Source: an uncultured Hyphomicrobiales bacterium
Lineage (GTDB): Bacteria > Bacteroidota > Ignavibacteria > Kapaibacteriales > UBA2268
Direction of reading: 5' to 3'
Assembly: GCA_964498585.1 (NCBI GenBank)
Contig: CAZCHH010000003.1
Span: forward strand, 9,333-73,332
Length of the DNA: 64,000 bases
The notes beneath the pieces are model-generated. The model had not been told where the DNA came from. It made no database searches and was given only the letters and a program-made list of their open reading frames with translations. Shown here piece after piece: positions 3,242 through 52,795 of the stretch (positions are counted from its first letter, which is position 1; each line of letters opens with the position of its first letter). Both the position numbers and the translations under genes were made by a program.

Positions 3242-3565
3242 CATTTGTATTAAAATTCTTACCGATTAATTAATTGAGGATTTCAAAATAAGAGAACTTA
3301 TATTAAGAATATAACTGAACTTAAAAATTCCCTTAATTATTCCATTTTTTACCAGTATTTTTTTCTATATTTATATGAATTCTGTTTCTATTGCAATGAT
3401 TCATTCAATTCAAATACTATTTACATCTTTCATTTTATTATTATTATTAATTATTTCTTTAATAATTTTAATATATTTATTCATTTATTTATTTAACGTA
3501 TAAATTTATTTAGTTATCGTATTGATTTTATTTATTAAAATATATATTCTTTAATTAATTTAATT

Positions 3566-3790
3566 ACTATTTTGATTGATTGAATCACTACTTTGAATAA
3601 TTATATTACTACTTTGATTAATTTAATTACTACTTTGATTAATTTAATTACTACTTTGATTGATTTAATTACTACTTTGATTAATTTAATTATTACTTTG
3701 ATTGATTAAATCACTACTTTGAATAGTTAAATTACTACTTTAAATAGTTAAATTACTACTTTAATTAAATTAATTACTACTTTATATATT
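3566..3790. repeat. tandem array of about 10 copies of a 22-bp unit (attactactttgattaatttaa and variants)
   Basis: Direct reading shows repeated 'attactactttgattaatttaattactactttgattgatttaatt...' with point variants (gattgatt/gattaatt, gaatagttaa). It has no spacers and lies in an 840-bp AT-rich intergenic region. Confidence 0.85.
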
Positions 3791-3963
3791 GAAGCAGTGA
3801 AATTTTCAAAGAAAAATCAAAAAAATAAAAAATAATTATTCAGGAATAAAAATAAATTATTAATTTTATCAATATAATTATGAATATTATTAATTTGGTA
3901 ATAAAATTTAATAAAAACTTTTTCAAAATTCAGTAAACAAGCAACTTAGCAATAGGTTTTATA

Positions 3964-4842
3964 ATGAAAAAACAAGTGCAATATTCATTTTATTTATTTG
4001 TTGTATTAACAATAATTAATTCTCTTTTTCTTTCATGCGACAGGCAAAAGCAAGACCCAAAAGAAGAGTTAATAAACAAATATGATACCTTGCTCACTGA
4101 TGAAAATTTTAATTATTTAATCAATACTCAGGATTTTATTGAATATTTTTTATTGCTAAAAAAACAGAATGCAATCTATAATGATTCTCTTGCAAAGCCA
4201 ACAGTATTTGAGCAAGCATCTTCAAGAAAAACAATGCTTCTTCGTTTTGGAATACTTTGCTCAGATATTGCATACAAGCGAATTGTAGGTGAGAAAAAGA
4301 CTTTGCCGGAATACGGCAAGCTTTTTCAAAAATATGTTAATGAGTTAAATATTAAATCATTTTTTAATATTAATTACAATAGTTTTTTTCATATTTTATC
4401 TACTCAGGAAATTACTGATTCCCTTTTATCTGAATTATTAAAAAAAATAAGAGACGAAAGAAAACTAATGTTTGAAAAGGCAAAATTGATAGATTTGGAT
4501 TTCATCGTCTATTATACACTCGGAGCTGCTTTGGAGCAAAGTTATTTTACTGTTAAATCCATTCTTAGCGACAAAACAAATTGCTATTTAGCAAAAATAA
4601 TTGAGCAAAATAAGTTATTAGACAAAACCAACACATTTTCTTCCTGGAAATTTTTAAAAATTACAAATGAATTTGTTTCGGATAATCCTAGATTAATTGA
4701 ATTTAAAAAAGAAATCAGTAAAGCAAAAAGCATTTATGATATTATTCTTGATAGAATTGAAAATGGTAAAGATTTTACAATGCAGGATATTCTTGATTTA
4801 GACAAGTTCATTACTTTATATAGAAATGAAATATTAAATTAA
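3964..4842 (+). CDS. hypothetical lipoprotein (paralog 1 of a tandem pair)
   Basis: Signal peptide with a lipobox-like 'LFLSCD'. It is homologous to the next ORF ('LRFGILCSDIAYKRIVG' vs 'IRFGMLCSDIAYMKIVG'; 'ELINKYDTLL' vs 'ELIEQFDTLL'). Confidence 0.7.
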   Translation: MKKQVQYSFYLFVVLTIINSLFLSCDRQKQDPKEELINKYDTLLTDENFNYLINTQDFIEYFLLLKKQNAIYNDSLAKPTVFEQASSRKTMLLRFGILCSDIAYKRIVGEKKTLPEYGKLFQKYVNELNIKSFFNINYNSFFHILSTQEITDSLLSELLKKIRDERKLMFEKAKLIDLDFIVYYTLGAALEQSYFTVKSILSDKTNCYLAKIIEQNKLLDKTNTFSSWKFLKITNEFVSDNPRLIEFKKEISKAKSIYDIILDRIENGKDFTMQDILDLDKFITLYRNEILN

Positions 4843-4866
4843 TTATTTTTATTAAAGGAAATTATT

Positions 4867-5733
4867 ATGTTTTTATTTTCAAAATCAAATTTAATAACAT
4901 TCATCATTTTAACTTCTATTCTTTGTATTCTTTTTTCCTGCAGTAAGCAGGAACCAGAGCCGAAAACAGAATTGATTGAGCAATTTGATACTTTACTAAA
5001 TCAGGAGCATATAACACATTTAGAAAAAGCCATAGACTTTATGGAATTTTTTATTTATTTAAAGAAAATTGATGTTCCTTTTTCTGATTTAGTTGCAAAA
5101 CCTGAGCAATACGAAAAATCTACAGACAGGCGAAATAAAATAATCCGATTTGGTATGCTTTGTTCTGATATTGCATATATGAAAATTGTTGGTGGTTTAG
5201 CTCAAACTCCTCTTTACGATAAACTTTTTGAAAGATATATTAAAGATTTAAATTTAACTTCTATTATGAAGAATTCTTTTGAGGAATATAAAAATATTAT
5301 TCAAAAAAAAGATTTATCTGAGAGTTTATTCGAAGATTTAAAAGAGAAATTACGTATGGACAGAGTTATCTTTGTGAACAAGACTAAAGATTTAGATGAT
5401 GTTTTTTTGATTTACTTTACCATTGGTAATGCAATTGAGCAGCTATATTTGCTGGAAACTTTAAAAAATGATAGCCAATACAAAGAAAAAATCAAGAAAA
5501 TCAATGATTATATAAAAGCAAATGGTGCTCCAATTCCATATTTATTTAATGATATTTGGAACAGCCAGTTCAAAGATGCACCACATCAAATATGTCACGA
5601 ATATGTTTTGAAAGTAAAACCAATTTATCAGATTATTTTAAATAAAATCAAGGACCAAACAGATTATACTGATGAAGAATTGCTTTTTATTAGTAAAAAA
5701 ACATCTGAATTAAGAAGTGAATTTCTGAAATAA
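4867..5733 (+). CDS. hypothetical lipoprotein (paralog 2 of the tandem pair)
   Basis: Signal peptide with 'LFSCS'. Clear paralogy to 3964..4842 along the whole length. Confidence 0.7.
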   Translation: MFLFSKSNLITFIILTSILCILFSCSKQEPEPKTELIEQFDTLLNQEHITHLEKAIDFMEFFIYLKKIDVPFSDLVAKPEQYEKSTDRRNKIIRFGMLCSDIAYMKIVGGLAQTPLYDKLFERYIKDLNLTSIMKNSFEEYKNIIQKKDLSESLFEDLKEKLRMDRVIFVNKTKDLDDVFLIYFTIGNAIEQLYLLETLKNDSQYKEKIKKINDYIKANGAPIPYLFNDIWNSQFKDAPHQICHEYVLKVKPIYQIILNKIKDQTDYTDEELLFISKKTSELRSEFLK

Positions 5734-5829
5734 GAAAATGCAATTTTTTGTAAATCTTTCATATTTGTCCTTCGCTCATAATGAGAAATAAATATCTTTA
5801 AAATATAGCAATTATACAAAGGAATTTCT

Positions 5830-6021
5830 ATGGGAGCAAAATTAACACAGTTCTACGAAGAAGCTAAGAAAATCGGTGGTATAAAAGCTCAGATGCGTAT
5901 GGCTATTCTAACAAAAATGCCGAGTACTCAAGCTTCAATATCACCTGATTCTCAAGAAAATATTAATATTTTCCAAAATGCTTTAAATGAAATTAAAAAA
6001 GAAAGTGGGAGAATAATATGA
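5830..6021 (+). CDS. small hypothetical protein (63 aa), first gene of a 3-gene operon
   Basis: AGGA 8 nt upstream of the ATG. Its stop overlaps the next start (ATGA), implying translational coupling. Confidence 0.5.
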   Translation: MGAKLTQFYEEAKKIGGIKAQMRMAILTKMPSTQASISPDSQENINIFQNALNEIKKESGRII

Positions 6022-6545
6022 GTAGAGTTCTAAAACAGGAATTTATTATCGAAAGATTTTTCGATGCTAACAATAAAAGGCACTATTTAAATGGTGAATT
6101 AAGCGTTCTGCACTGCCACCATTACGCTGTGCTTTATACTCAACTTGCTCTTGATGCAAAAGAAACGAAAATTATAAGTGAGGTTGCCGAAGAGACTTTT
6201 TATAAAGTAATAACAGAATATTTCCAAAAGCATCAGATCAATAAATTAGAAGACAGAATAGCAATAGCTTCGGAATATTATTCTGTAATTGGATTAGGAC
6301 AATTGATAGTAAAATTTGCCGGCTTAGATTCTGGCATTGTAGAAGTTCCGGTTTCTCATATTGATGCTGGCTGGAGAAGGAAATGGGGCGATTATGATAA
6401 ACCAGTTAATTATATAACAGCTGGTTTTATAAGTGCTATGTTTTCTGCAATTTTCGATAAGCCCTTATTCTACTTTAAAGTTGTTGAAACAAAAAGCATA
6501 GTAATGGGAGATAAAGTTTCTTTTTTCAAAATTAATCATTTATAG
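6018..6545 (+). CDS. V4R-like (4-vinyl reductase / hydrocarbon-binding-like) domain protein, paralog A
   Basis: Pattern 'IGLGQLIVKFAGLDSGIVEVPVSHIDAGW...NYITAGFISAMFSAIFD' resembles the V4R domain consensus (G.G....v.e....e...C.f.aGfi.G). The assignment is tentative. It is translationally coupled to its neighbours. Confidence 0.5.
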   Translation: MSRVLKQEFIIERFFDANNKRHYLNGELSVLHCHHYAVLYTQLALDAKETKIISEVAEETFYKVITEYFQKHQINKLEDRIAIASEYYSVIGLGQLIVKFAGLDSGIVEVPVSHIDAGWRRKWGDYDKPVNYITAGFISAMFSAIFDKPLFYFKVVETKSIVMGDKVSFFKINHL

Positions 6546-6554
6546 GAGAATGAT

Positions 6555-7157
6555 ATGGCTATAGATAGAAAGAAAATCATTGAAGAAATGGCTAAAGTTA
6601 GCGTAGAAAGCAATGAAGAAGGTATTATTGAAGCTTTCAATGTGATGGTAAATCAACTACCAGCAGTATTTTGGAACTCATTTGCCGAACGTCTTACAAG
6701 GAAATCATCTCCGGAAATGATGGAAGCAACTGAATTTTTACTTGTTAATGCTGCACGTGAATGTGGCTATCATACTGGCTATGGAATTATTACTTCTGAA
6801 GAGTGGAAAAGATTAGTTGCTCCAATGATTGATAAAACTCCAAAAGATATTTTGCATGGTGCTTATGCTGTAATTTCAGCTTGGGGTTGGGCTAATGCTG
6901 AGATTGTTGAACTCCTTCCCGGAGAAAAAATGGTTATTCGTGCTTATAATTATTACGAATCCGATGTTGTTAAGTACGGGAAATCAGATAAAATGAACGC
7001 ATATATGATTCGTGGAATTTCTGCTGCTTTTATGGCTTTAGCTTATGCAGGCGAATATTCTCCTAAAGATACTAATAAACTTCATGCTTTTAATTGCCAA
7101 CAGATTAAAGGTATTGAATGTGGTGATGATTACGGAGAATTTATCGTTACAAAGTAA
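6555..7157 (+). CDS. V4R-like domain protein, paralog B
   Basis: 'ISAWGWANAEIVELLPGEKMVIRAYNYYESD...AYMIRGISAAFMALAYAG' has the same architecture as the preceding ORF. Good RBS 'aggaga'. Confidence 0.5.
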   Translation: MAIDRKKIIEEMAKVSVESNEEGIIEAFNVMVNQLPAVFWNSFAERLTRKSSPEMMEATEFLLVNAARECGYHTGYGIITSEEWKRLVAPMIDKTPKDILHGAYAVISAWGWANAEIVELLPGEKMVIRAYNYYESDVVKYGKSDKMNAYMIRGISAAFMALAYAGEYSPKDTNKLHAFNCQQIKGIECGDDYGEFIVTK

Positions 7158-7556
7158 TATATTACTAATTACATCTTTACATTTATTTGTTATTTTTTTT
7201 AATTCATTACTGAAAAATTGGTCTGGACTGGATGATAATTTTAGAACTTATAAATAAATTTAAGAGTTATTTTAAAAATGCAACACTGAGTAATTGAATA
7301 TGGCAACTAAATGCGATATTGTTCTTTATGAAGTAAATCTCCTAACACCTTTATTTTAATTATATTATCTGATATTTTGTTTTACTTTTAATTTATTTTG
7401 AGTTTCCAAAAGTTTGGAAACTAAGAGAAAGTTTAGTATTTTTATAATTAATTTTGTATCAATAATCCTAAATCATTTTTTGATATTGAATTAATTTACA
7501 TTTCAAAATAATGTTAAGTGAAAATTATAAGTTATTAATTTAAAATTAGCTTAAAT

Positions 7557-8537
7557 ATGGACAACAATAAAATTCAATTTTTATCTTTTATAATAATAGC
7601 AGTAGTATTTCTGTCGTCCTGTTCTGATAATTGCAATGAACCTACAAAAGAAGAGATAATTGGTTCTTATAAAGCTCATTTAGAAATAGTTGAGACTGTT
7701 ACCAATTCAATAGATGACGGATTGGAGCATATTTTTAATTCAGAAAAATATAAGGATATTAACAAAGTGCAAATAATTCAGGATTATTTAGAAAAAATCC
7801 GTTTTTTCTCTGATAATTCCGGTTATCTTTATTGCTATGATACTACTATGACAAATATAGCTCATCCAATACTTAAAAGCTATATTGGAACAAATCATCT
7901 AAACGACCAGGATGCTAACGGAAAATTCTTTGCTCTCGAAATGCAAGATAGTTTAAGAAAAGCTGGGCAGGGTGTAATTAGTCATTACTGGCTTAATCCG
8001 TCAAGCGGAGTTGATGAAGAAAAAATTGCATACATTAGATTAATTAACAATACCAAATACTTCATCGGTACTGGTTTCTTTAAAAGTTATTTGAAAGAAT
8101 GGAGTATATCAAAACTCGGTTTAAAAATGGAAGTAACACGTAATGCTGTCCAAGCAACTGCTCTTGGGCTTTCATATCTTTTCCAGACCAATTACAATAC
8201 AAAAGGAGAGCAAATTGAGTTTATGAAAACTTATATGGATTCTCTTCGGTTCTATAACGACAATTCAGGATATTTCTTCGTTGACGACACTAATCATTTT
8301 AGTATTGTTTTCCCAACAAGCAAGCACTACGAAGGAACTAGTTTAGTCGATTATCAAGACACAAAAGGGAATTATCCTGTTCGTCAAATGGTTGATATTA
8401 TAAAAAGGAATGGCAAAGGAAATACAGAATATTATTATATTAATCCGAAAAATGGAATTGAACAAAAGAAATTAGTATTTGTTGAAAAAATCAATGGAAC
8501 TGAATTTTTCATTGGTGCAGGAGTGTATGTGGAGTAG
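7557..8537 (+). CDS. lipoprotein with two tandem sCache_2-like extracytoplasmic sensor domains and no output domain
   Basis: Lipobox 'LSSCSD'. Two repeats match the sCache_2 hallmark: 'GYLYCYDTTMTNIAHP...ANGKFF...GQGVISHYWLNPSSGVDEEKIAYIRL...YFIGTGFF' and 'GYFFVDDTNHFSIVFP...TKGNYPVRQM...GKGNTEYYYINPKNGIEQKKLVFVEK...FFIGAGVY'. Confidence 0.75.
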   Translation: MDNNKIQFLSFIIIAVVFLSSCSDNCNEPTKEEIIGSYKAHLEIVETVTNSIDDGLEHIFNSEKYKDINKVQIIQDYLEKIRFFSDNSGYLYCYDTTMTNIAHPILKSYIGTNHLNDQDANGKFFALEMQDSLRKAGQGVISHYWLNPSSGVDEEKIAYIRLINNTKYFIGTGFFKSYLKEWSISKLGLKMEVTRNAVQATALGLSYLFQTNYNTKGEQIEFMKTYMDSLRFYNDNSGYFFVDDTNHFSIVFPTSKHYEGTSLVDYQDTKGNYPVRQMVDIIKRNGKGNTEYYYINPKNGIEQKKLVFVEKINGTEFFIGAGVYVE

Positions 8538-8632
8538 ATTAGAAAGATTAGATAGATTAGAAAGATTAGAAAGATTAGAAAGATTAGATAGATTAGATAG
8601 TTTAGATAGATTAGATAGATTAGAAAATAATT
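8535..8632. repeat. 9-bp microsatellite (GATTAGAWA)x~11 that begins at the stop codon of the Cache lipoprotein gene
   Basis: Sequence 'tagattagaaagattagatagattagaaagattagaaagattagaaagattagatagattagatagtttagatagattagatagattagaaaat'. Confidence 0.85.
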
Positions 8633-8880
8633 GACATTTTAAAATATTACTTAGTTAAATTTGTAAAAAATAAATTTGAAAACGCATTTATGAGTCCTCT
8701 CAAAAAAAGTCATACCTGTGAATACGGTTATCTAAAAACCATACTGGGAGTGGAATTTCGATTTCTCAGAAATGACATTTCATAGTTATTAGACTGGATG
8801 CATTTGTAATAAATTTATTATAATAACATAATTATATAACATTAAAATACTATAAATAAACAAACTATTAAATTAAAACT

Positions 8881-9270
8881 ATGGAAAAAACATTTCATAA
8901 ATATAGTTTTGAAAACCTTGAAGTATGGCAAATGGCAAAAGATTTTGTTAAAGATATTTATTTACTAACTAATACATTTCCAAATTTTGAGAAGTATTCT
9001 CTTACTAGTCATATAAACAGAGCAGCAATATCAATAGCTTCAAATATTGCTGAAGGCAGTACAAGAACAAATTTTAAAGACCAAGCTAGATTTTCTCAAA
9101 TAGCTTAAGGTTCATTAATGGAAATTCTTTGCCAAATCATTATAGCTAGAGAGTTAAATTATATTAATGATGAAGATTATTATAAATTAAGAAAAAAAAT
9201 TGAAACTATTTCATTTAAAATCAATTCATTGAGAAAATATCAATTAAAGAAAATCACGACTAAACAATGA
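8881..9270 (+). pseudogene. four-helix-bundle protein (23S rRNA intervening-sequence protein family) interrupted by an in-frame TAA at 9106..9108
   Basis: The N-terminal 75 aa ('...NIAEGSTRTNFKDQARFSQIA*') continue in the same frame after the TAA as 'GSLMEILCQIIIARELNYINDEDYYKLRKKIETISFKINSLRKY...'. The family-conserved 'F..IAKGSL.E' motif spans the stop, which sits where Lys is expected. Confidence 0.6.
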
Positions 9271-9328
9271 AATACTAAGCAAAAAAAATCTAAACAAAAA
9301 AAATCTAAACAATGAAAATCTAAACTAT

Positions 9329-10246
9329 ATGAAATTAAAACACATCGTAGAATCGCAACAATTTACAGTTCCATTACTTTTAGAACTGTTTGAACGAACA
9401 AATCAAATGAAAAAAATCGTAGCCCGTGGCGGAACGAGAGATTATCACAATAAAATTATGGCAAATCTCTTTTATCAGCCATCAACACGTACCCGTTTTT
9501 CATTTGAATCAGCAATGTATCGCCTTGGTGGAAGTGTAATCTCTACTGAACAGGCAACTGAATTTTCATCTGAAATAAAAGGTGAAATGCTAGAAGATAC
9601 AATCCAAATTATTTCTAATTATTGTGATGTAATTGTCTTGCGTCATGATGAGGAAGGCGGAGCTAAACGTGCCGCTGCTGTTTCTCCTGTTCCGATTATT
9701 AATGCTGGCGATGGCTCTGGCGGGCAGCATCCTACTCAGGCATTATTAGATTTATACACTATTTTTAATGAATGCCATACTCTTGATGGCTTGTCAGTTG
9801 CTATTATTGGCTCATTAGACCACGGAAGAACTGCACGCTCACTTGCATATCTGTTAAGCAAATTTGACAGAGTAAAGCTTTATTTCATTGCTCCTGATGA
9901 ATTGCAAATTAAGCAGGATATTTTGGAACATCTTGAAGAAAAAAATGTATGGTATCAACTATCAAATACAACTGAAGACATTATTAACAGAGTAAATGTA
10001 GTTTATCAAACCCGCATTCCAAGAGAACGGTTAAAGAATAAAGAACAGGATTTATCAACTTTTAATATTGATTCTACCGTTTTGCAAAAAATGAAATATG
10101 ATTCTATAATAATGCATCCATTACCCCGCTCTGTTGAAATAAATCCAGTAATTGACACTGACCCAAGAGCTGCATACTTCCGTCAGGCACAAAATGGATT
10201 GTATGTGCGTATGGCTTTGCTTACTATGGTTTTTGATGAAGATTAA
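9329..10246 (+). CDS. pyrB: aspartate carbamoyltransferase catalytic subunit
   Basis: 'STRTRFSFE', 'HPTQALLD' and 'HPLPR' motifs. Length 305 aa. Confidence 0.9.
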   Translation: MKLKHIVESQQFTVPLLLELFERTNQMKKIVARGGTRDYHNKIMANLFYQPSTRTRFSFESAMYRLGGSVISTEQATEFSSEIKGEMLEDTIQIISNYCDVIVLRHDEEGGAKRAAAVSPVPIINAGDGSGGQHPTQALLDLYTIFNECHTLDGLSVAIIGSLDHGRTARSLAYLLSKFDRVKLYFIAPDELQIKQDILEHLEEKNVWYQLSNTTEDIINRVNVVYQTRIPRERLKNKEQDLSTFNIDSTVLQKMKYDSIIMHPLPRSVEINPVIDTDPRAAYFRQAQNGLYVRMALLTMVFDED

Positions 10247-19870: not shown

Positions 19871-22800
19871 CTAATCCATCTGTAATAATTTATCAATTCT
19901 TTCCATAGTTTGCAAAGTAAATTCTAAAACGTTTATAACATTAATAAAATGCTGCAAATCACCAACAGTTAAAGAATGGTTTAGTTTTTTCCGCTCTGAA
20001 AGCCATTTTTCTAAAACCTGATAGCCACCAACTTTATATTCCCAAATCTCTTTAGGAACATTACTGAAATATCTGTTTTTATTGAAATAAATTCTATTGT
20101 TCTCATATTTTATTGAATCAACTTTAAAATTGTCGGTTTCACCTTCTGAGCGGCAATTCACAGAAACAGGGAATTTCTTTAAAAGATGAGCATTGATCAA
20201 TTCAGTCCCGATATTTGATAGTTCCAAAAACAATTCTTCATTATCAACAAAAGGAACACGCGGAAAATCTATTCTTAAAAATTCATTATATTTTTCTCTG
20301 AAATTTGGGCTGTGCAAAACTGCATAAATATAAGCAAATACCTGCTCCGGTGAATAAGCATTTTTATATTTATTTTTAATGAAATGCCTGAATTCCTTTG
20401 TAAAATTGTCCCTTTTTCCTTCCTGATTAAAAAGGAAATCGTTACCGTTAGAAATATAGTTTTTATCAATATATAAATACAGAGGAAAAAAATTAGTTGA
20501 TTCTTTTGTGAATCCAATATCACCAATAAATTCAGTTACAAAAATATGCTTCCATATATTTGTTTTTATTTGTCTTGGAATTGCAAGTGCAACAGAACCT
20601 TTTAAAATATGCTGCATAACATTAAACCTGTTAGTTCCTGGTTCAATAAAATCAAAATCGTAATATAAAAATCTTTTATCAAAAGGGCGATAATGATAAT
20701 CAATAATTTTTTCTTTGTTAAAATGCCCTTTTTCAAGAACCTTTTTTATTTTCCAATCTCTTGTATCATTTAAACCTAATTCTCTGTTTATTTCACTTTT
20801 ATCTAATTTCAAAAAAGTAGTAATTCTTTTTTCAATTAATTCTTTTTGCAGAGCTATTAAAAACTTGTCCCGATGAGTTTTTACTCCACTTGATTGAATT
20901 TTAAAAATTTCGTCAATTTTATAACCCTTTTTATATTCATCTCTATTAGTCCAATTCTTTTTTACAAAAAAATAAAATTCATCGTTAGGAAAAATTTGAT
21001 TCCATTTTACTGTTCTTAATGAATTGTTCCATAAAAACTCATATTTGCTTTTTTTAGTTCCAAATAAATCATAGTAATTAACAGTGGATTCATTGCTTTT
21101 ATTTGGATTCTTAATAAATAAAGAAATACAAACTCCCTGCATAATTTCAAAAACATTTTCATCTTTTGTTCCATCAGGAGATTTTTCACCGATTCTTGAA
21201 CTACCATGCAGGTTCATAATATAAATTTCATTAAACGTTTTCATCAACTCCAGTCTCATTCCTTTATGAATCAGACCATCAATATATGAATTATTTGATA
21301 TTATCCCTATTACACCGTTTTTTACATTTTCCATTTTCCAATGAGCAAAACGAATAAATTTAATGTAATCGTCTGAAAGTGGTTGAATATTCTTTTCATT
21401 TCTCACTGCTTCTTTATAAGTAATCATTTTTTCATCTGTAATAAAGCCGGCTTTGTTTTGACTGCTAACTGAGTAAGGAGGATTTCCAAGAATAACAAGA
21501 ATATCCTGATTCTTTATTCGGTTTGCTTCTTTACCTTCCTTCGAGAGGGCTGGCATAATTGGAAATGGCTGTGGCTCTTTATTTGTAAGTGTGTTTGTAA
21601 GAAAGATATTTATTCGTTTACTTTCGTCTAAAGAATAGCCAAGTTCTTTGATAAATTCAGTGATTTTTAATTGAGCAACGATATATGGAGCAACAAGTAA
21701 TTCAAATCCATAGAAATTATTAATTATTTGTTCATTTAATATTTTATTTACTGTTTGCCTGTCACCAAGCGTTTGTGCCTGTTCTAATGCAAGTTTGAAA
21801 GCGTTTAAAAGGAAAGTGCCGGTGCCTGTTGCAAAATCAAGCAAAGTAACTTTCTTATTGATTAAGCCATCGCTAAGTCCAAAAGTTACCTTTAAAATCT
21901 CTTCAATAGAACGAACGATAAAAGAAACTACCGGTTCAGGTGTATAATAAACACCTCGCAGTTCTCTTTGCGATTTGTCATAATTTGTAAGGAAATCTTC
22001 ATAAAAATAAATAAATGGGTCGTTGAATCCCTGGTCTTTGTTACGATAATCGGTAAATTCCTTTTTTATTGCAGTATAATCAGTTACTTTTAATATGTTA
22101 ATAATTTCATCTATTGCCCAGGTTATTTCTCTCGGAAAATCATCTAAACGATGGAATAATTCTTTAATTAAAGGAAAAGAATGGGGGAGAAGTGAAAATG
22201 CACTGCTTCTGTTAAGTTGTTTATGTGGTTCATCGCAGTTAAGTGCAGCTAAAAACAAAGAATATGTCAGTGTTTGAGCATAAATATCTGAAAAATATTG
22301 CGTTTCTAAAAGAGGAAGCAGCGATTCTTTGAACACTTCGTAAACTCCCTGCATAAGATTTGTTTCGTCTCTTTCCTTTTCCAATTCAATATAGCAGTAT
22401 TCCCTTAAAAAAGTAGCTTTTTCTGCAAGTTTAAAAGCAAGTGTTTCCACTTTGAAAATCGGCTCCGGCTCTGCTTCAAAAAATTGTTTTAAAAGCCGAG
22501 AAAGTTCTTCTGTTTTACTTTTTGCTAATTTTATTTCCTTTGATTTTAAATCTTCAACAGAGCAGAGTGTAGTATCAAAAACCACATCACCTTTTACAAG
22601 CAGGATAAAACGAAGATAATCAGTAAGAATAATATTATCGGAAAGTTGCTTATAACGTTCAATTTGCTCTGTATTAAGAGTTCTTTCCAAATCGGTGCCT
22701 AATTTTTTCGTTTCAAGCAAACCGATTGTTAATATATTTGGAGTAATTATTTTAAAATCGGGGCGCCCTTTTCCTTCAACCTGTGTTGGCTCGTGCTTAA

Positions 22801-22936
22801 TAATCAACTCACGGCTAATATTTTCACTTAAAAAACGATTAAGCATATTTTGCAAATATGTTCTGTATGAATGTTCCGAACTTTCACTATTCGAGACAAA
22901 CTCCTTTAATATACTATCAATGTATTCTTTAAACAT
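19871..22936 (-). CDS. single-polypeptide Type IIL/IIG restriction-modification enzyme (MmeI-like): N-terminal PD-(D/E)xK nuclease, gamma-class N6-adenine methyltransferase and C-terminal target-recognition region
   Basis: N-terminal 'GRPDFKII...LLETKK' (D..ExK), 'GVYYTPEPVVSFIV', motif I 'LLDFATGTGTFL' and motif IV 'LGNPPYSV'. At 1021 aa it is comparable to MmeI-family enzymes. Confidence 0.65.
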   Translation of the reverse strand: MFKEYIDSILKEFVSNSESSEHSYRTYLQNMLNRFLSENISRELIIKHEPTQVEGKGRPDFKIITPNILTIGLLETKKLGTDLERTLNTEQIERYKQLSDNIILTDYLRFILLVKGDVVFDTTLCSVEDLKSKEIKLAKSKTEELSRLLKQFFEAEPEPIFKVETLAFKLAEKATFLREYCYIELEKERDETNLMQGVYEVFKESLLPLLETQYFSDIYAQTLTYSLFLAALNCDEPHKQLNRSSAFSLLPHSFPLIKELFHRLDDFPREITWAIDEIINILKVTDYTAIKKEFTDYRNKDQGFNDPFIYFYEDFLTNYDKSQRELRGVYYTPEPVVSFIVRSIEEILKVTFGLSDGLINKKVTLLDFATGTGTFLLNAFKLALEQAQTLGDRQTVNKILNEQIINNFYGFELLVAPYIVAQLKITEFIKELGYSLDESKRINIFLTNTLTNKEPQPFPIMPALSKEGKEANRIKNQDILVILGNPPYSVSSQNKAGFITDEKMITYKEAVRNEKNIQPLSDDYIKFIRFAHWKMENVKNGVIGIISNNSYIDGLIHKGMRLELMKTFNEIYIMNLHGSSRIGEKSPDGTKDENVFEIMQGVCISLFIKNPNKSNESTVNYYDLFGTKKSKYEFLWNNSLRTVKWNQIFPNDEFYFFVKKNWTNRDEYKKGYKIDEIFKIQSSGVKTHRDKFLIALQKELIEKRITTFLKLDKSEINRELGLNDTRDWKIKKVLEKGHFNKEKIIDYHYRPFDKRFLYYDFDFIEPGTNRFNVMQHILKGSVALAIPRQIKTNIWKHIFVTEFIGDIGFTKESTNFFPLYLYIDKNYISNGNDFLFNQEGKRDNFTKEFRHFIKNKYKNAYSPEQVFAYIYAVLHSPNFREKYNEFLRIDFPRVPFVDNEELFLELSNIGTELINAHLLKKFPVSVNCRSEGETDNFKVDSIKYENNRIYFNKNRYFSNVPKEIWEYKVGGYQVLEKWLSERKKLNHSLTVGDLQHFINVINVLEFTLQTMERIDKLLQMD

Positions 22937-28939: not shown

Positions 28940-31900
28940 TTACTGGGAACTTTCTTTATTTTTTCCGATAACAGACATAATAATGCTGAACAATTCATTT
29001 TTTTCAATAGGTTTAGAAATGAAGGCATCGCAACCTGCATCAAGAGCTTCTTGCTTTTCGTCTAGATGTGAATAAGCAGTTTGAGCTATAATTGGTATAT
29101 TAGGATTCGAATTTTTGATTATTTTAGTAGCTTCAAAGCCGCTTAAGAGAGGCATTTTTAAATCCATAAGAACTAAATCGAATTTTTCTTCTTCAACTTT
29201 CTTTATAGCATCAAATCCAGTTTTCACCAAGGTAATCTGGACATTTTCATTTTTTAGTAACTGCTTTAAATAAAAATAATTAGTATTCTCATCTTCAACA
29301 ATAAGAATTTTCATTTGAGGAAGTCGAATTTTTTCTTTCTTTTCTTCACTGTTTTTTGGCATTATGTTACCTCCTTTGACGTAAAATAATGGAATACTTA
29401 AAGAAAATATTGAACCAACATTAAGTTCTGAATCAACAGATAAATCGAAATCCAAAAGCTTTGCAGTTTCTTTACAAATAGACAGACCAAGCCCAGTACC
29501 ACCAAATTTTGCATTTGAAAAAGCTTCATATTGCCAGAATCTTTCAAAAACTTTATCTATATATTCTTCATTTATACCAATTCCGGTATCTCTTACAGAT
29601 ATAATCAGCATATCTTCTTCAATTTTGAAAGCTAATTCAATTTCACCCTGTTTAGTAAATTTAATAGCATTATTCAATAAATTAATAATAATCTGATATA
29701 ATTTGTCTTTATCCGTAATCAGATATAGCTTCGATAATTCAAATGGTAAGTTAGAGATAAAATTAATTCCTTTTTCTTTAATTGTTTCACTATATAAAGA
29801 GTTAATATAATGAAACATTTCATCTAAAGAGAAGTTTGAAATATTTACCTTAGCCAGACCACTATCAAGGCGTGATATTTCAAGAACATCATTAACAATA
29901 GCCAGTAGTCTTTTTGAAGAGCTAATAATTAATTCAATATATTCATTTCTTTCGTCGTCAGTTAATTCGTTAAAATCCTGCAATAAATTAGAAAAACCGA
30001 CAATTCCATTCAGAGGAGTTCTAATTTCGTGAGACATATTTTGCAGGAAAGAGGTTTTTAATTTATCACTTTGTTCAGCTTTGTCTTTTGCGATTAGCAG
30101 TTCATTTTCCATTTTAATTCTATCAGAAAAATCAATACCAACGCCCATTAATAAAGTGCCTTCATTAGTATCAAGACGCTTGCCAATTATATGATAAGAA
30201 CAAATTTCACCGTCTTTGCGGATTAATCTAACGATACCTTGAGCTTCTCCTTTTTCAAGAGCAATTTTTATGGAATCCTGTAAGAGTTGTTTATCGTCAT
30301 CATATATAGAATTGAAAATGTTGTGAGCTCTAATAGTATCAGAATCCAACCCGACGAATCTTTCATTATTTTTATTGCACCTAATAATTTGCATATTAGA
30401 ATCGAACATAAAGAAAAGTCCGGGCAAGCTTTCAATCAGTTTGTCTGAAAAATATTTTTCATTTCTTAGCACCTCGTCATATTTTTCCATTTGAGTAATA
30501 AACCGGGCTTGCTGAACGTTTTGATAAGCAATATTAGACAACTGATTTGCTAAAGTAAAAAGAACCTGAGAAATCTTTTCAAATTCTTCTTTTGACATTA
30601 CTGGCACTTTGTGAAATGCTTCCAAGAAAAGATTTTTATCAACGCCAATATATTCTGCATATTTTGCCATATTTTCATCGGTTTGCGTTTCGTCTCGGAC
30701 TTGACCGATTAGCCAGTTAGCAATATGTTTTCCACCGACAGAAATACCTGCTCCGGCTTCCCAAAGTCCACCGCTAAGGCAGGGCTGAATTCTTGGACCA
30801 TCTAAAGAAATAACTCCTGATTCAGCATCAGATTTAATGCAGTTTTCAAGTCCTTTATCTGTTTTTCTAATTATATCTTTGCAAAGCGGGCAAAAATTGC
30901 TCGGTTGTGTGATAGAGCTTCCATCAGGATAAGTAATTAATGAAGCAACACCGGTTGCGTTAGCGAAATCATCCTGAAGTTTTTGAATTTCTTTTATATT
31001 AAATAAATCCTCAAATGTAATGTCTATGCTATCATTAATTGGTTGAGTTAATGCTATAATCCTTTTTTCAAGTGCTTCTTCTGCTCGCTTTTGTTTTGTA
31101 ATATCAATTACGGTCGATACCATCGAATCCTGTTCTGCCAAAGGAATATTTGCAACATTAATAAATTTAATATCACCATTTTTTGTATGAATTTTTAAAT
31201 TTTCCCAATGCATTCTGTTTTCATCTAATGATTTCATATCATTAGCTATTCTTGTTCTAATTTCACTCCTGTATTTTTCATCTGGAATAGCATTCATATA
31301 GAATTTATCAATATCACTTAAAATTTCTTTATTCCAGCCATTTATTTCTTCAAACTTATGATTGAAGTAAAAAACCTGATTATTGCTAATAGAATTAATT
31401 GCAATTCCAATAGGAAGATTATCCAAAACTGTTTGAATAAATTCATTCTTTTGTCTTAATTCTTCTTCATTCTTTTTCTGTTGAGTAATGTCGGTTGAAA
31501 TACCGCAGAGAGCAATAGGATTATTATTCAAGTCAAAAATTTTAGTTATTCTGCAATCTAAGATAATTTCTTCACCTTGTTTATTGTAATTAACAACTTC
31601 ACCTCTCCAGTGCCCATATTTCAGAGTATTTTCCAATATTTCATTTTGTGAAGCACCTTTTTGAATGTCATCACCAAACAAATTCACATGGGACCCAATG
31701 ATTTCATCTTTATTATAGCCGAGTAATTCGAGCTCTGCTTTGTTTATGTCAATAATGATACCATTCAAATCAGTTATAGTAACCTTATCCTGTATTTGAT
31801 TAATGACTAAAGATTTAAGATAAATTTGTTCTTCAGTTTTTTTCTTTTCTGAAATATCCCTAATAACGAAAACCATACCAACAGGTTGATTATTAATATC

Positions 31901-34900
31901 ATGAATCACATCGCCGTTTACTTCACATATTAACTCAAACCCATCTTCAAATCTTAATTTATATTCAATAATACCTTGAGGTTTATCAATCATTTTTTTT
32001 GCATTTTCGATAGCTCTTTCTTTATCTTCATCGGCAATAAAATCGAAAATATTTTTCCAATATACTCTTTCAATGGGTAACATATTGAATAATGGGAAGG
32101 AAGTTTCATTAATAAAAGTAATATGACCATTAATATCAGTCCTAATGATAATATCCGGAACTGTCATTATGAGTTTTCTGTGCAATTCTTCGCTATCTCT
32201 TAATGCTTCTTCAATTTGTTTTCTTTGATGAGTTTCTAAGCATAAAGAAATGAGGGAAGCAAGAGTTAAGGATAACTGAATTTCATCGGGCAACCATTTT
32301 CGATGCTGTCCGGTGTTTTCAAAACATAAAATAGCAGCAAGACGTCCCTGCGTCCAAACAGGAGCATCAAGCAATGATTTGGTATCTTTTTCAATAAAAT
32401 ATGATGAAGGGATTTGATTAGTTATCGGGTCTTCATATACGTTTTCGACAGCAATAATTCGCCCGGATTTATGTTCTTCAACATAATTTGGAAATTCTTT
32501 TGTAAACAATTTTAAACCTTTACTAAATGAGTCTTTTGATTTCTCATAAAGAGTTTTACAATACATTTCTGTATAATTTTGATTATAAATCCAGATACTT
32601 ACTCTTTCAGTATCTAACATAACAGAAGCTGTTTTTACAATTTTCCTTAAATTATCGCTAAATTTTCCGGAAACAAATTCTCCGTCTTTAATTAGTTCGG
32701 CAATATATGTGTTGAATTTTTGCTGACGAAAGTTATCTTCTATAATTCTTAGTTCTGTTTGCTTTCTTTCGGTAATGTCTCTCATTATTCCTAAGACCAA
32801 TAATAGTTCCTTTTCTTCAAGGACAACGGTGCTAACTTCAATTATCTTTAGTTCATTATTTTTACTGATTATTTCTATTTCATATAAGTTGCTAACTTCC
32901 TGATGAGAATATCTTGCTTCATATCTTTTTCTCATTAGTTCCTTACTTTTTTCAGTAAGCAATACATTAAAATCAAATTGAACGGAAAGCAATTCTTCGC
33001 GTGTATATCCGGTAATTTCGCAAAATCTCTCATTCACAAATTCATATTTTTTATCTCTAATTAAATAAATGCCGTCGAATGCATTTTCTACTAAACTTTG
33101 GAAACGTTTTTCGCTTTTCCTTACTTTTTCAATAACTTGTTTCTTCTCGGTAATATTTCTTATAATAGCTCCAAGCCCAACTTTAGCTGCTTTTAGTTTT
33201 ATTGGAAATTTGGTAACTTCAAATGTCTGATTAGCAACAAGTTCTTCAACTACAACTGTTTTTCCAGTCGATAAGGCAAGTTTATCACTATCCTTACATT
33301 TATCTGCTTCTGCTCTTTGCATTAACTGATAATCTGTTTTTAAAAGTATATCCTTTCTTTCTTTCTTTAAAAAATTACAATAAGCATCATTTGCAACAAT
33401 ATATCGAAGTGAATCATCTTTTACAAAAATAATATCAGTATTGGAGTTTATAAAGCGATTATAACGTTCTTCACTTTCACGCAATGATTCTTCTGTTTTT
33501 TTCCTTTCTGTTATGTCATGAATAACAGAGTAAAGCAATGGACGTTCGTTTATTACAATAGGTCCGCTATATACCTCGACATCTCTTAAAGAACCATCTG
33601 CTATAAGATGTTTAAAAATAAAACAATTTCTTTTTTCCTGCTGAGCCAAACTCATTTCATTTTGAACTTCTTTTTCGCCTAATATATTAATCTCAGAAAT
33701 TTTCTTTTGCAGTAGCTCTTCTTTACTCCATCTGTAAAATTTGACAGCGGCAGGATTTGCGTCAATTATTTCACCATTTTTTGGGTCAATAATCAGCATT
33801 ACAGCATGATTATTTTCGAATAAGCTGCGGTATCTTTCTTCACTGTCTTTTATTGCCAGTTCAGCAAGTTTTTGTTCAGTTATATCTGTAAATGTAATTG
33901 CAAAGTAACCTTTTTGGGGACAAAATGCTTTTATGTTATAGTATTTATTTAAGGTTTTTGAATGATTAATTAAATTTATAGATTTTCCAGTAAAAGCGAC
34001 TTCTTTAAAAATATTGACACGCGTATCTACTATGTTTGATAATGCTTCAGATGCTCTTTTTCCAATTAAATCTTCTTTTTTTACTCCGGAAATTTCTTCA
34101 AAAACTGAATTAATTTCAATAAATCTGTAATCAACTGGTTCATTATTTTCATCTAAAATAATTTCGTGCAAAGCAAAAGCTTCGTTCATATTTTCAAAAA
34201 GTGTTCTATACTTTTTCTCGCTTTCAATCAGAGCTTTTTCATTTTCTTTTAGTTTAGTAATATCACGGGCAACTGCAAAAATTACTCTTTCATCTGGATA
34301 AGGATAGATATTCCATGATAGCCATTTATATGTTCTATCTTTACATAAAAATCTAATACTATAATTCAATAAATCAATTTCATCAATAGTTTTTCCATAA
34401 ATATCATCTGGATGAATAAATTCTTTATATGGCTTTGAAAGAAGTGTTTGCAAATCCCAGCCGAGAGTTTTCTCCCAAGCCGGATTAAGGTGAGTAAAAA
34501 ATCCATCATAATTAGCAGTGCAAAGCATATCAACGCTAAAATTAAATACTCTGTCGCTTGCTTTAAGTTTTTCTTTAAGAATTATTTCTTCAGTTATATC
34601 GCTTGCAAATCCAAGTATAGTGTTATCAGTTATTTTTACAGCTTTTACTGACCAACTCCTGATTGAACCGTCTTTTAATTTAAAACGGAAATCTCCGGTT
34701 GCTTCGCCTTTTTCTAATATCCTTTGAAAGTGTTTTAATCCAATATCTAAATCTTCTTCATATACTATATCCCGTATATTTAATTTTATAAGTTCTTCCA
34801 GAGAATAACCAGACATTATCGCAGCTGAATTATTAATATTTATCAAATTTCCCTGATTGTCAGCTATAAAAACACCGTCTGGTGCATTATCAATATAGCT

Positions 34901-35914
34901 TCTAAATCTTTTTTCGCTTTCTGTTAAATTTTTTCTTGCTTTGTGGCTTTCAGTAACATCAGAAAAAACGATTACTACTCCTTTTACATTTCCAAATATA
35001 TCTTTAATTGGAGCAGCGCCATCTGAAATATTGTATTCTTTGCCATCTTTAGAAACTAATATAGTATGATTGGAAAGTCCAACAATTTCTCCAGATGCAA
35101 GAACCTGAGCAACAGGACATTGTATATCGTCTTTAGTTGTTTCATTATAAATTTTAAAATAGTTACAAAATTTATTGCCTTTGGCTTCTTCCATCTTATA
35201 ACCCAAAATCTTTTCTGCCGCCGGATTCATCATTACCACATTTCCGTTTTCATCAGTAGAAACAACGGCATCTGAAATTGAATGTAAGGTAATTGATAAA
35301 TTTTCCTCGCTTTGAAGGATTCGGTTATATATTATTTCTTCATTTAATTGATTTCTGATTAAAATACCAAGTAAGACTGTCGCGATTGGATATATAATTA
35401 AAACTGGTAAACTTATATGCTCTAATACTTCTATAGCTTTTTCATAAGGCATTAAAAGCATTAGTGCAAGCATTACAATATGTACGATAATCCCAATTAA
35501 ATATAATTCCCAGTTTTTTATATTTACAAGAGGTGTTTTCCGAAAATACCGCCACGCTAAACCAATTAGCCCAGACGCTAAAATTACTGAAACACCTGTT
35601 ACTGCTGCAGTTCCGCTAATCACTATTCTGTATATTATTGCAATAACCATTGTAATAATAGTCGGGATTGCACCGAAGAACAAACCGCTAATGCACAGCA
35701 ATACTGAACGTGTATCGAAAATAATTCCTAACTCCAATACCCAGGGCGTTGCCATTAAAGCAATACAAACAACACCCATTAAAATACCAACAAGTATTTT
35801 GCCGGGTATTGCCCTTTCAAACTGCCATTTTCTTAATGTAATATTAAAAATAAAAGCGATTGCAAGCAGCAAAGCTGCGTTATGCAATAAATCCAAATAA
35901 ATACTATTATTCAT
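28940..35914 (-). CDS. giant hybrid sensor histidine kinase (2324 aa): N-terminal membrane domain, ~10 PAS/PAC domains, a GAF domain, a PocR-like sensory domain, HisKA, HATPase_c and a C-terminal receiver
   Basis: HisKA 'SFLQNMSHEIRTPLNGIVGFSNLL', an ATPase G-box region 'GGTGLGLSICK' and a receiver 'KILIVEDENTN...DLVLMDLKMP'. The Cys-rich 'CPLCKD...CIKSD...CLSGGLWEAGAGISVGGKHIANWLIGQV' resembles PocR. PAS-like blocks recur throughout. Confidence 0.85.
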   Translation of the reverse strand: MNNSIYLDLLHNAALLLAIAFIFNITLRKWQFERAIPGKILVGILMGVVCIALMATPWVLELGIIFDTRSVLLCISGLFFGAIPTIITMVIAIIYRIVISGTAAVTGVSVILASGLIGLAWRYFRKTPLVNIKNWELYLIGIIVHIVMLALMLLMPYEKAIEVLEHISLPVLIIYPIATVLLGILIRNQLNEEIIYNRILQSEENLSITLHSISDAVVSTDENGNVVMMNPAAEKILGYKMEEAKGNKFCNYFKIYNETTKDDIQCPVAQVLASGEIVGLSNHTILVSKDGKEYNISDGAAPIKDIFGNVKGVVIVFSDVTESHKARKNLTESEKRFRSYIDNAPDGVFIADNQGNLININNSAAIMSGYSLEELIKLNIRDIVYEEDLDIGLKHFQRILEKGEATGDFRFKLKDGSIRSWSVKAVKITDNTILGFASDITEEIILKEKLKASDRVFNFSVDMLCTANYDGFFTHLNPAWEKTLGWDLQTLLSKPYKEFIHPDDIYGKTIDEIDLLNYSIRFLCKDRTYKWLSWNIYPYPDERVIFAVARDITKLKENEKALIESEKKYRTLFENMNEAFALHEIILDENNEPVDYRFIEINSVFEEISGVKKEDLIGKRASEALSNIVDTRVNIFKEVAFTGKSINLINHSKTLNKYYNIKAFCPQKGYFAITFTDITEQKLAELAIKDSEERYRSLFENNHAVMLIIDPKNGEIIDANPAAVKFYRWSKEELLQKKISEINILGEKEVQNEMSLAQQEKRNCFIFKHLIADGSLRDVEVYSGPIVINERPLLYSVIHDITERKKTEESLRESEERYNRFINSNTDIIFVKDDSLRYIVANDAYCNFLKKERKDILLKTDYQLMQRAEADKCKDSDKLALSTGKTVVVEELVANQTFEVTKFPIKLKAAKVGLGAIIRNITEKKQVIEKVRKSEKRFQSLVENAFDGIYLIRDKKYEFVNERFCEITGYTREELLSVQFDFNVLLTEKSKELMRKRYEARYSHQEVSNLYEIEIISKNNELKIIEVSTVVLEEKELLLVLGIMRDITERKQTELRIIEDNFRQQKFNTYIAELIKDGEFVSGKFSDNLRKIVKTASVMLDTERVSIWIYNQNYTEMYCKTLYEKSKDSFSKGLKLFTKEFPNYVEEHKSGRIIAVENVYEDPITNQIPSSYFIEKDTKSLLDAPVWTQGRLAAILCFENTGQHRKWLPDEIQLSLTLASLISLCLETHQRKQIEEALRDSEELHRKLIMTVPDIIIRTDINGHITFINETSFPLFNMLPIERVYWKNIFDFIADEDKERAIENAKKMIDKPQGIIEYKLRFEDGFELICEVNGDVIHDINNQPVGMVFVIRDISEKKKTEEQIYLKSLVINQIQDKVTITDLNGIIIDINKAELELLGYNKDEIIGSHVNLFGDDIQKGASQNEILENTLKYGHWRGEVVNYNKQGEEIILDCRITKIFDLNNNPIALCGISTDITQQKKNEEELRQKNEFIQTVLDNLPIGIAINSISNNQVFYFNHKFEEINGWNKEILSDIDKFYMNAIPDEKYRSEIRTRIANDMKSLDENRMHWENLKIHTKNGDIKFINVANIPLAEQDSMVSTVIDITKQKRAEEALEKRIIALTQPINDSIDITFEDLFNIKEIQKLQDDFANATGVASLITYPDGSSITQPSNFCPLCKDIIRKTDKGLENCIKSDAESGVISLDGPRIQPCLSGGLWEAGAGISVGGKHIANWLIGQVRDETQTDENMAKYAEYIGVDKNLFLEAFHKVPVMSKEEFEKISQVLFTLANQLSNIAYQNVQQARFITQMEKYDEVLRNEKYFSDKLIESLPGLFFMFDSNMQIIRCNKNNERFVGLDSDTIRAHNIFNSIYDDDKQLLQDSIKIALEKGEAQGIVRLIRKDGEICSYHIIGKRLDTNEGTLLMGVGIDFSDRIKMENELLIAKDKAEQSDKLKTSFLQNMSHEIRTPLNGIVGFSNLLQDFNELTDDERNEYIELIISSSKRLLAIVNDVLEISRLDSGLAKVNISNFSLDEMFHYINSLYSETIKEKGINFISNLPFELSKLYLITDKDKLYQIIINLLNNAIKFTKQGEIELAFKIEEDMLIISVRDTGIGINEEYIDKVFERFWQYEAFSNAKFGGTGLGLSICKETAKLLDFDLSVDSELNVGSIFSLSIPLFYVKGGNIMPKNSEEKKEKIRLPQMKILIVEDENTNYFYLKQLLKNENVQITLVKTGFDAIKKVEEEKFDLVLMDLKMPLLSGFEATKIIKNSNPNIPIIAQTAYSHLDEKQEALDAGCDAFISKPIEKNELFSIIMSVIGKNKESSQ

Positions 35915-52627: not shown

Positions 52628-52795
52628 TTTATAATTGTTAATTGTTAATTGTTAATTATTAATGGTTTATGGTTTATAGTTTATTGTTTATAGTTTATAT
52701 TGTAATTTAGTCATTAGTTATTGGTCATTTGTCATTAGTATTGTTTTCAAATTATCACTTATAATTAATAATTAATAATTAATAATTAATAATTA
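52628..52795. repeat. block of short tandem repeats: (TTAATTG)x4, (GTTTATR)x5, (GTCATTWGT)x3, (ATAATTA)x5 ending at the methyltransferase stop codon
   Basis: Direct reading of 'ttaattgttaattgttaattattaatggtttatggtttatagtttattgtttatagtttata...ataattaataattaataattaataattaataatta'. Confidence 0.85.

Follow-up and report, generated by a model that had tools for sequence, protein, structure and literature searches.

We analysed a 64,000-nt stretch of DNA deposited under the name of an uncultured Hyphomicrobiales bacterium (assembly GCA_964498585.1, contig CAZCHH010000003.1, positions 9,333 to 73,332; hereafter the window, meaning this whole stretch), in which three tightly coupled genes, here called S, A and B, encode a 63-aa protein and two larger paralogs. 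The predicted structures of A and B match the phenol-sensor domains of MopR, PoxR and DmpR, and the trio recurs in 15 or more bacterial phyla, mostly beside a cysteine desulfurase gene and in part of the loci beside a chemoreceptor gene. The explanation that we prefer, with a probability of about one half, is a heteromeric sensor of the MopR/V4R type, built from S, A and B in the cytoplasm; a His/Cys-rich site would hold its metal or sulfur cofactor, and chemotaxis or two-component proteins would receive its signal.

The S-A-B unit and the fold of its paralogs

S (5830-6021) is an open reading frame (ORF) of 63 codons with no Cys or His, A (6018-6545) encodes 175 AA with a MopR/PoxR/DmpR-like V4R fold, and B (6555-7157) encodes 200 AA of the same fold and is the most conserved member of the trio; all three lie on the plus strand. 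Direct reading of the sequence confirmed the three coupled genes of the original prediction, which had been made from the letters and ORFs of the window. The stop codon of S and the start codon of A overlap in an ATGA at 6018-6021 (+), indicating translational coupling, and a 9-nt gap separates the A stop codon (TAG, 6543-6545) from the ATG of B at 6555, with an AGGAG ribosome-binding site for B at 6544-6548 (+) that overlaps the A stop codon and is spaced 6 nt from the ATG. None of the three proteins has a signal peptide, as judged by reading their sequences. An alignment of 77 S sequences defined the conserved pattern MGxKL..[FY]Y..A...GG.KA.MRLA..T..PS.KA...PDSPENI.KF..A..EI.KEF. The paralogy of A and B, also claimed beforehand, is borne out by their profiles, which align over the C-terminal ~100 residues (hhalign E 6e-5, probability 65%), and by the identical top structural matches of their models; they are distant paralogs.

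AlphaFold2 models built on input alignments of 41 homologs for A and 44 for B reached predicted local distance difference test (pLDDT) scores of 90.3 and 84.9, respectively. When the A model was compared with the PDB using Foldseek, the best matches were the phenol-sensor domains of MopR/PoxR/DmpR (5kbh/5frw; 172-175 columns, E 2e-8, query TM-score (TMq) 0.77), followed by Bet3/TRAPPC3 and the V4R protein MJ1460, and the best matches of the B model were the same MopR/PoxR set (E 3e-5). Both proteins thus belong to the V4R/Bet3 structural superfamily, which shares the two-layer alpha/beta fold of MJ1460, Bet3 and the MopR sensor. A resemblance of the paralogs to V4R had been proposed from the sequence, with the lack of a V4R fold in structural models named as grounds for abandoning the proposed sensing module; the fold was found in both models, and the match to the MopR/PoxR/DmpR sensor is nearly full length. 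As modelled, A and B resemble the whole XylR_N+V4R sensor module, beyond the 62-residue V4R core.

At the level of sequence families the relationship is much fainter. The Pfam V4R profile (PF02830) matched A below threshold (15 bits against a cut-off of 31, E 0.027, residues 121-159 only) and did not match B, so that neither is a family member by the gathering threshold. Beyond this sub-threshold match, Pfam and NCBIfam hold no family for S, A or B, NCBIfam and PADLOC returned nothing for S, A, B or the small partner protein T described below, and when A, B and their profiles were run against PDB sequences (phmmer, hmmsearch), only chance matches came up. The fused AAA+ sigma-54 activator and helix-turn-helix (HTH) domains that define the XylR/DmpR/MopR class are missing, since A and B stand alone; their homologs are either 171-207 AA long or A-B fusions of ~400 AA, and neither form has an AAA+ domain. 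Direct reading of A and B also failed to find the H-NOX signature (proximal His, Y-x-S-x-R). We considered a bacterial TRAPP-like scaffold in which A and B would form a Bet3-type platform for a small GTPase or a membrane process, with S as adaptor. This is very improbable: the MopR/PoxR/DmpR match is clearly better and spans the full length, and GTPase, longin and roadblock genes do not recur among the neighbours of 80 loci, which gives no support for membership of the Bet3 group of TRAPP.

In a survey of one genome per species, 205 of 185,579 species encoded a relative of B. Eighty species loci were fetched, representing Ignavibacteriota, Planctomycetota, Acidobacteriota, Armatimonadota, Verrucomicrobiota, Gemmatimonadota, Myxococcota, Omnitrophota, Latescibacterota, Elusimicrobiota, Spirochaetota, Bacillota, Desulfobacterota and others, 15 or more bacterial phyla carrying the trio in all; gene orders were counted on 86 loci. 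The S-A-B order is kept in 81 of these 86, the exceptions being contig ends or S ORFs below threshold, and an S-like ORF lies directly 5' of A in 81/86. Because of these S-like ORFs and the homologs present in databases, S, A and B are real genes, and chance ORFs are ruled out. The database homologs numbered 207 for A (~50% identity), more than 1,138 for B (65-84% identity) and 11 for S (word-indexed search); where names are given they read 'hypothetical protein', and some A homologs carry the Joint Genome Institute (JGI) name 'predicted hydrocarbon binding protein'. Junctions between A and B are short or overlapping across loci, and the window conforms to the family in gene order, tight coupling and the invariant HCHH and H114 of A and C70 and E135 of B. 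A plasmid or phage origin was rejected, as tblastn found no match to B among 72,556 plasmids and 50,697 phages. Some labels of metagenome-assembled genomes (L007, L009, L064, L076) appear to clash with content and nearest relatives, such as 'Hyphomicrobiales' on ~30% GC Ignavibacteria-like contigs and 'Thermoplasmatales archaeon' on a locus with bacterial che genes, and probably reflect mis-binning or mislabelling.

Mean pairwise identity across the ~80 species loci was 0.69 for B, 0.48 for A, 0.46 for S and 0.43 for the cysteine desulfurase described below. At ~69% identity across 15 or more phyla, B is among the more strongly conserved unnamed bacterial proteins, which implies that its function is under constraint and probably involves several partners.

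The two paralogs very probably work as a pair, because many distant relatives are natural fusions of A and B. An exhaustive search with the B profile returned 257 cluster representatives at 50% identity, the core family being a single representative, and at least 54 of the more distant ones are fusions of 380-435 AA whose N-terminal half resembles A and whose C-terminal half resembles B, the same order as that of the genes. The context of three fused relatives was inspected: one has a 77-aa gene and a weakly T-like 118-aa gene as its flanks, another has 118-aa and 68-aa genes before it and CheR, CheA and a hybrid kinase after it, and the third lies on a short contig beside a substrate-binding protein.

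Conserved residues and a candidate cofactor pocket

The invariant residues of A are H32-C33-H34-H35, G92/G94, H114, W119 and E157, and those of B are C70-G-Y-H73-T-G, W110-G-W112, Y133-Y134-E135, C181 and E188, with C189 nearly so (at least 90%). The fusions share with the core family H32, C33, H35, G92, G94, H114 and G136 in A, and C70, T74, E83, W84, D98, W112, Y134, E135 and G154 in B. Among the 54 divergent fusions H32, C33, H35, H114 and C70 are kept in ~90% or more and E135 in 53; less strictly kept are H34 (39/54), W119 (36/54) and E157 (28/54, mostly Gln in the rest).

The MopR sensor offers a reference for these positions, and we take its E178 to be the fourth ligand of its structural zinc. 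C155, C181 and C189 of MopR are zinc ligands, and H106 and W134 anchor the phenol (PMC9556785). In an alignment of the extended A profile with DmpR, residues N131, E157, S160 and S168 of A fell on the MopR zinc-site positions C155, E178, C181 and C189, while H114 fell on W134 and Y88 on H106; for B, placed through the A-B profile alignment, I107 and Y133 occupy the H106 and W134 positions. The pocket register of A and B against MopR is approximate, at 10-17% identity. Searches for a direct sequence alignment of B with DmpR, or of the A and B profiles with Bet3, where C70 of B might correspond to the acylated Cys68, yielded none.

Because the profile alignment puts other residues at the MopR positions, the pocket appears to be kept but relined, by His, Tyr and Asp in A and by Tyr and Glu in B, and on the same alignment the structural zinc site of A appears to be lost (N131, S160 and S168 in place of Cys). 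The C181/E188/C189 set of B is in a register that differs from the MopR zinc site, and neither A nor B has the phenol-anchoring His106/Trp134 pair in a hydrophobic pocket. Unlike A of the window type, many fused relatives have Cys/Glu/Cys/Cys at the zinc-site positions. A divergent fusion family (P0252, P0257, P0285, P0293, P0311 and others; loci L087, L090 and L091) carries this MopR-type Cys/Glu/Cys/Cys set in its A half and often in its B half, and has its own small S-like and T-like genes as flanks. We infer that the HCHH motif and H114 of A cluster in space with C70 and H73 of B.

Genomic partners of the trio and the neighbourhood in the window

Clustering of all ORFs in the 80 species loci revealed two partners, a cysteine desulfurase (CD) and a small protein (T), which adjoin the trio on the same strand in 67 of the 80, in the order CD-T-S-A-B in 47 loci and S-A-B-CD-T in 20. 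T alone occurs in six loci, and neither gene in seven, including L007 and L008, the closest relatives of the window. A 74-locus ORF cluster ('c2') that had been considered antisense shadow ORFs proved on closer inspection to consist of the desulfurase and T genes. CD is a class-V pyridoxal phosphate (PLP) enzyme of ~380 AA in the cysteine desulfurase family (SufS/CsdA-type), with its PLP Lys and RxGLHCAP catalytic Cys 99% conserved; it matches Aminotran_5 (7e-66) and TIGR01977 (9e-95; 318 bits, below the 377-bit cut-off), with SclA and SufS as the next matches. T is ~95 AA long with the pattern EDCxDG...FxRPxF...KGxEG and a single invariant Cys (99%; for example L060 7831-9263 and L025 10617-12082). 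It has no Pfam or NCBIfam family and looks, from its sequence and position, like a previously unnamed family of sulfur acceptors; the possibility that it is a truncated V4R paralog was rejected, as hhalign gave a probability below 1% and no relation to A or B. Six species loci have a DUF3034 gene in common (L011 8218-9177, L013, L014, L016, L023 and L034; also L001 5369-6283), which lies directly upstream of S in some and upstream of CD-T in others and is a lineage-specific extra member of the cluster.

Neither CD nor T was found in the 64-kb window by tblastn or six-frame hmmsearch, nor near the trio in L007 or L008, so that a dedicated sulfur supply is not obligatory, and in the lineage of the window, where CD and T are unlinked, any sulfur supply would have to come from elsewhere in the genome. 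The original prediction had noted that the trio has no kinase, transporter or enzyme partner. This is true of the window but does not hold elsewhere, where CD and T adjoin the trio in 67/80 loci and signalling genes dominate the co-directional neighbours.

The latter were counted by Pfam domain in the 93 co-directional genes that lie no more than two positions from the module. They comprised 17 methyl-accepting chemotaxis protein (MCP), nine PAS, six receiver, five HATPase and three CheW domains, along with HAMP, Hpt and SpoIIE, and the remaining domains were singletons. In 18 of the 80 loci the module has a same-strand MCP gene no more than 300 bp from its boundary; of the 28 MCP genes in ~1,000 kb of flanking sequence, 18 fall within the first 300 bp against ~1.3 expected under uniform placement, a ~14-fold concentration. 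In L079 the module lies inside a che operon (CheW-MCP-CheA/CheW/REC-S-A-B-CD-T-CheB), and in L041 the order is CheW-MCP-CD-T-S-A-B-CheW-MCP. The MCPs beside the module are of varied types (sensor-less short forms, PAS, CZB, dCache, 4HB, poly-HAMP), and several have no sensor domain at all.

In the sensor that we favour, the diverged paralogs A and B would pair with each other, in the manner of the homodimers that MopR sensor domains form and of the heterodimers of Bet3-family subunits. S would be a small helical third subunit, kept stoichiometric through translational coupling. The equivalent of the phenol pocket may be lined in A by H114 and Y87/Y88, with H32-C33-H34-H35 nearby in sequence, and in B by Y133, Y134 and E135, plus C70 and H73, a chemistry that would suit a metal ion or a metal-sulfur or persulfide cofactor and not a hydrocarbon. 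In most genomes this cofactor would be supplied or repaired by the linked CD and its Cys-containing acceptor T. With no output domain of its own, the S/A/B complex would pass on its signal through direct protein contacts with chemoreceptors, CheA/CheW or histidine kinases. A conserved unit with conserved partners that point to sensing agrees with the earlier suggestion of an undescribed sensing system, as far as the trio alone is concerned.

Several observations count against this explanation. The N-terminal register of A against MopR, which contains the HCHH motif, is unreliable. We infer the heterodimer, the role of S, the ligand, the cofactor, the sensed signal and the output. The window, L007 and L008 have no desulfurase or T nearby; the window, which shows the bare trio and none of its informative partners, also has no chemotaxis genes in its 64 kb; and about three quarters of the loci have no adjacent MCP. 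Because the MCPs that do adjoin the module are of many types, no single partner is indicated. Finally, 69% identity of B across phyla is above that of the usual small-molecule sensor and would fit a scaffold or enzyme subunit too.

Some of these points feed a non-sensory alternative, a machine for sulfur transfer or cofactor assembly in which CD would load persulfide onto T, A/B, together with S, would be the scaffold or carrier on which a sulfur-containing cofactor, cluster or thiolated small molecule is made and then handed on, and the chemotaxis neighbours, a minority, would be secondary. CD and T are the most frequent partners of the trio (67/80 loci), CD is invariant in its catalytic residues and T in its Cys, A and B have universal Cys and His residues of an acceptor-like kind, and B is conserved far above typical sensors (0.69 against 0.43 for CD itself); V4R proteins such as BchJ are, moreover, proposed carriers of biosynthetic intermediates. 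Nevertheless, other biosynthetic genes (radical SAM, ATPases, transporters) do not recur nearby and only signalling genes do, MCP genes are concentrated ~14-fold over expectation at the module boundary, the window, L007, L008 and L078 keep S-A-B with no CD or T close by, and the closest structural relatives are non-catalytic sensors. We therefore regard this machine as unlikely, although a serious contender.

A more specific form of the preferred sensor, which we put forward as speculative and rather doubtful, is a new soluble input to chemotaxis and two-component systems in which a metal-sulfur centre of His and Cys at the A-B interface, installed or repaired by CD-T, would report O2, redox state, NO or sulfide to sensor-less chemoreceptors. 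The site might, for example, be of a 2Cys/2His [2Fe-2S] type or persulfide-bridged, using C33 of A, C70 of B and the histidines of A. If so, the MopR 'hydrocarbon sensor' fold would have been repurposed as a cofactor-based gas or redox sensor in carriers that are mostly uncultured, many of them from anoxic habitats, and the V4R/MopR pocket would be convertible from hydrocarbon binding to metal or sulfur chemistry. A cofactor-bearing chemotaxis sensor would also be a new class of input for chemoreceptor arrays, chiefly in little-studied groups with few cultured members, among them Ignavibacteriota, Planctomycetota, Omnitrophota, Acidobacteriota and Elusimicrobiota. The hypothesis is testable in a cultured carrier among the loci, Paludibaculum fermentans of the Acidobacteriota (L060).

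In the window itself, two lipoprotein genes precede S, LP1 (3964-4842, +) and LP2 (4867-5733, +), and a third lipoprotein gene follows B at 7557-8537 (+). LP1 and LP2 are, as described previously, paralogs of unknown family (35% identity, E 1e-54, no Pfam or NCBIfam match). The downstream gene encodes 326 AA with an LSSC lipobox and two sCache_2/dCache_2 stretches (E 6e-40 and 1e-43), and its reported tandem Cache architecture with no output domain was confirmed, but it does not directly adjoin B, from which it is separated by a 400-nt AT-rich spacer with a palindrome. The latter is imperfect (7390-7433, from repeat finding; perfect core AGTTTCCAAA/TTTGGAAACT at ~7402-7423) and might possibly be a terminator or an operator; the consensus scan made no terminator call there, and promoter and terminator scans of the AT-rich DNA at 3500-9000 did not differ from shuffled controls.

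The original prediction had joined the trio, the two upstream lipoproteins and the Cache lipoprotein into one sensing or scaffolding system. All these genes lie on the same strand and encode putative binding proteins, and homologs of LP1 and LP2 again lie directly upstream of S-A-B in L007, the nearest relative. Among the fetched loci, however, LP1/LP2 homologs occur only in L007 and Cache homologs in none, the trio is flanked by unrelated housekeeping genes in other phyla, the palindrome-bearing spacer intervenes between B and the Cache gene, and the products would reside in different compartments, because S, A and B have no signal peptide and their neighbours have lipoboxes. Such a joint system is thus largely refuted and has very little likelihood, and the lipoprotein and Cache neighbourhood is most likely lineage-specific and incidental. 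A conserved neighbourhood does exist, but it is a different one, made up of CD, T and signalling genes. In L007 the position upstream of S-A-B is occupied by three tandem LP paralogs (6502-9196), and no other fetched locus has any.

The remainder of the window is ordinary chromosome, encoding glucan phosphorylase, aspartate carbamoyltransferase, HPr kinase, TrpRS, TyrRS, ThyX, MnmA, TGT and RecN, together with a TonB-dependent receptor, a protein with a type IX secretion system (T9SS) tail and a Type ISP restriction enzyme. Such a gene content fits an Ignavibacteriota/Kapabacteria-like organism, and so do the nearest homologs. A 9-nt tandem repeat, AGATTAGAA, starts at the stop codon of the Cache gene (8536-8626; ~10 copies in perfect register, 92% matches) and yields a spurious 'LERLDRLERL' ORF at 8479-8634. 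At 8881-9270 lies a gene for a 23S rRNA-intervening-sequence protein (four-helix bundle) with an in-frame TAA at 9106-9108, which splits it into ORFs of 75 and 50 AA covering Pfam profile positions 1-65 and 71-105; it is likely a pseudogene or a recoded gene. A 15-nt tandem repeat, CTAAACAAAAAAAAT (9260-9335, ~4.4 copies), is immediately 5' of the aspartate carbamoyltransferase-like gene at 9329-10246. On the minus strand are a single ORF of 2,324 AA (28940-35914), the Type ISP restriction-modification enzyme (19871-22936; Type_ISP_C 3e-78, N6_Mtase) and a separate N6_N4 DNA methylase (52793-54298), so that the window holds at least two genes of restriction-modification type.

Comparison with known systems

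Stand-alone H-NOX gas sensors are likewise encoded beside histidine kinases, cyclases and MCPs, but A and B lack the heme His and YxSxR, match them much more weakly in structure, and have two subunits with a cysteine desulfurase as partner. The Bet3-family subunits of TRAPP share the superfold with A and B, and paralog heterodimers (Bet3-Trs33, Bet3-Trs31) are their working unit. Bet3 carries its ligand on a conserved Cys, whose equivalence to C70 of B is hypothetical. Structural scores are lower than for MopR, however, and A and B are bacterial, sparsely distributed and have no GTPase or longin context. Compared with the stand-alone V4R proteins (PF02830; MJ1460, BchJ; COG1719), which Pfam detects in A only at 15 of the 31 bits required and not in B, our proteins have an extra XylR_N-like N-terminal module, form an obligate pair or fusion and are accompanied by S. 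For the CD-T genes of related loci, the counterparts are SufS-SufE and CsdA-CsdE: CD is a group II (RxGLHCAP) enzyme of the desulfurase family, and the gene after it encodes a small protein with a single invariant Cys; in contrast to these pairs, T belongs to no Pfam or NCBIfam family and CD scores 318 bits against the TIGR01977 cut-off of 377.

The closest likeness is to the MopR/PoxR/DmpR/XylR sensors, which are the best structural match and share with A and B an N-terminal beta-meander followed by the V4R alpha/beta core as well as aligned pocket positions, although the similarity is undetectable in sequence by phmmer or hmmsearch against the PDB. These sensors dimerise and drive AAA+/HTH output domains, whereas A and B are a diverged paralog pair with a 63-aa subunit, not a homodimer, and stand alone with neither domain. 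Relative to the MopR zinc site, that of A appears lost (N131/S160/S168) and that of B rearranged (C181/E188/C189), and where MopR has a hydrophobic phenol cage the pocket of A and B would offer His, Cys, Tyr and Glu. We found no description of the trio's architecture in Pfam, NCBIfam, PADLOC, PDB sequences or the literature open to search, including work on V4R with cysteine desulfurase or chemotaxis and on COG1719. The fold and the idea of V4R as a ligand sensor are already known; what the libraries and papers searched do not describe is the obligate A/B pair with S, its link to a dedicated cysteine desulfurase and a new small Cys protein, its association with chemotaxis operons and the relining of the pocket with His and Cys.

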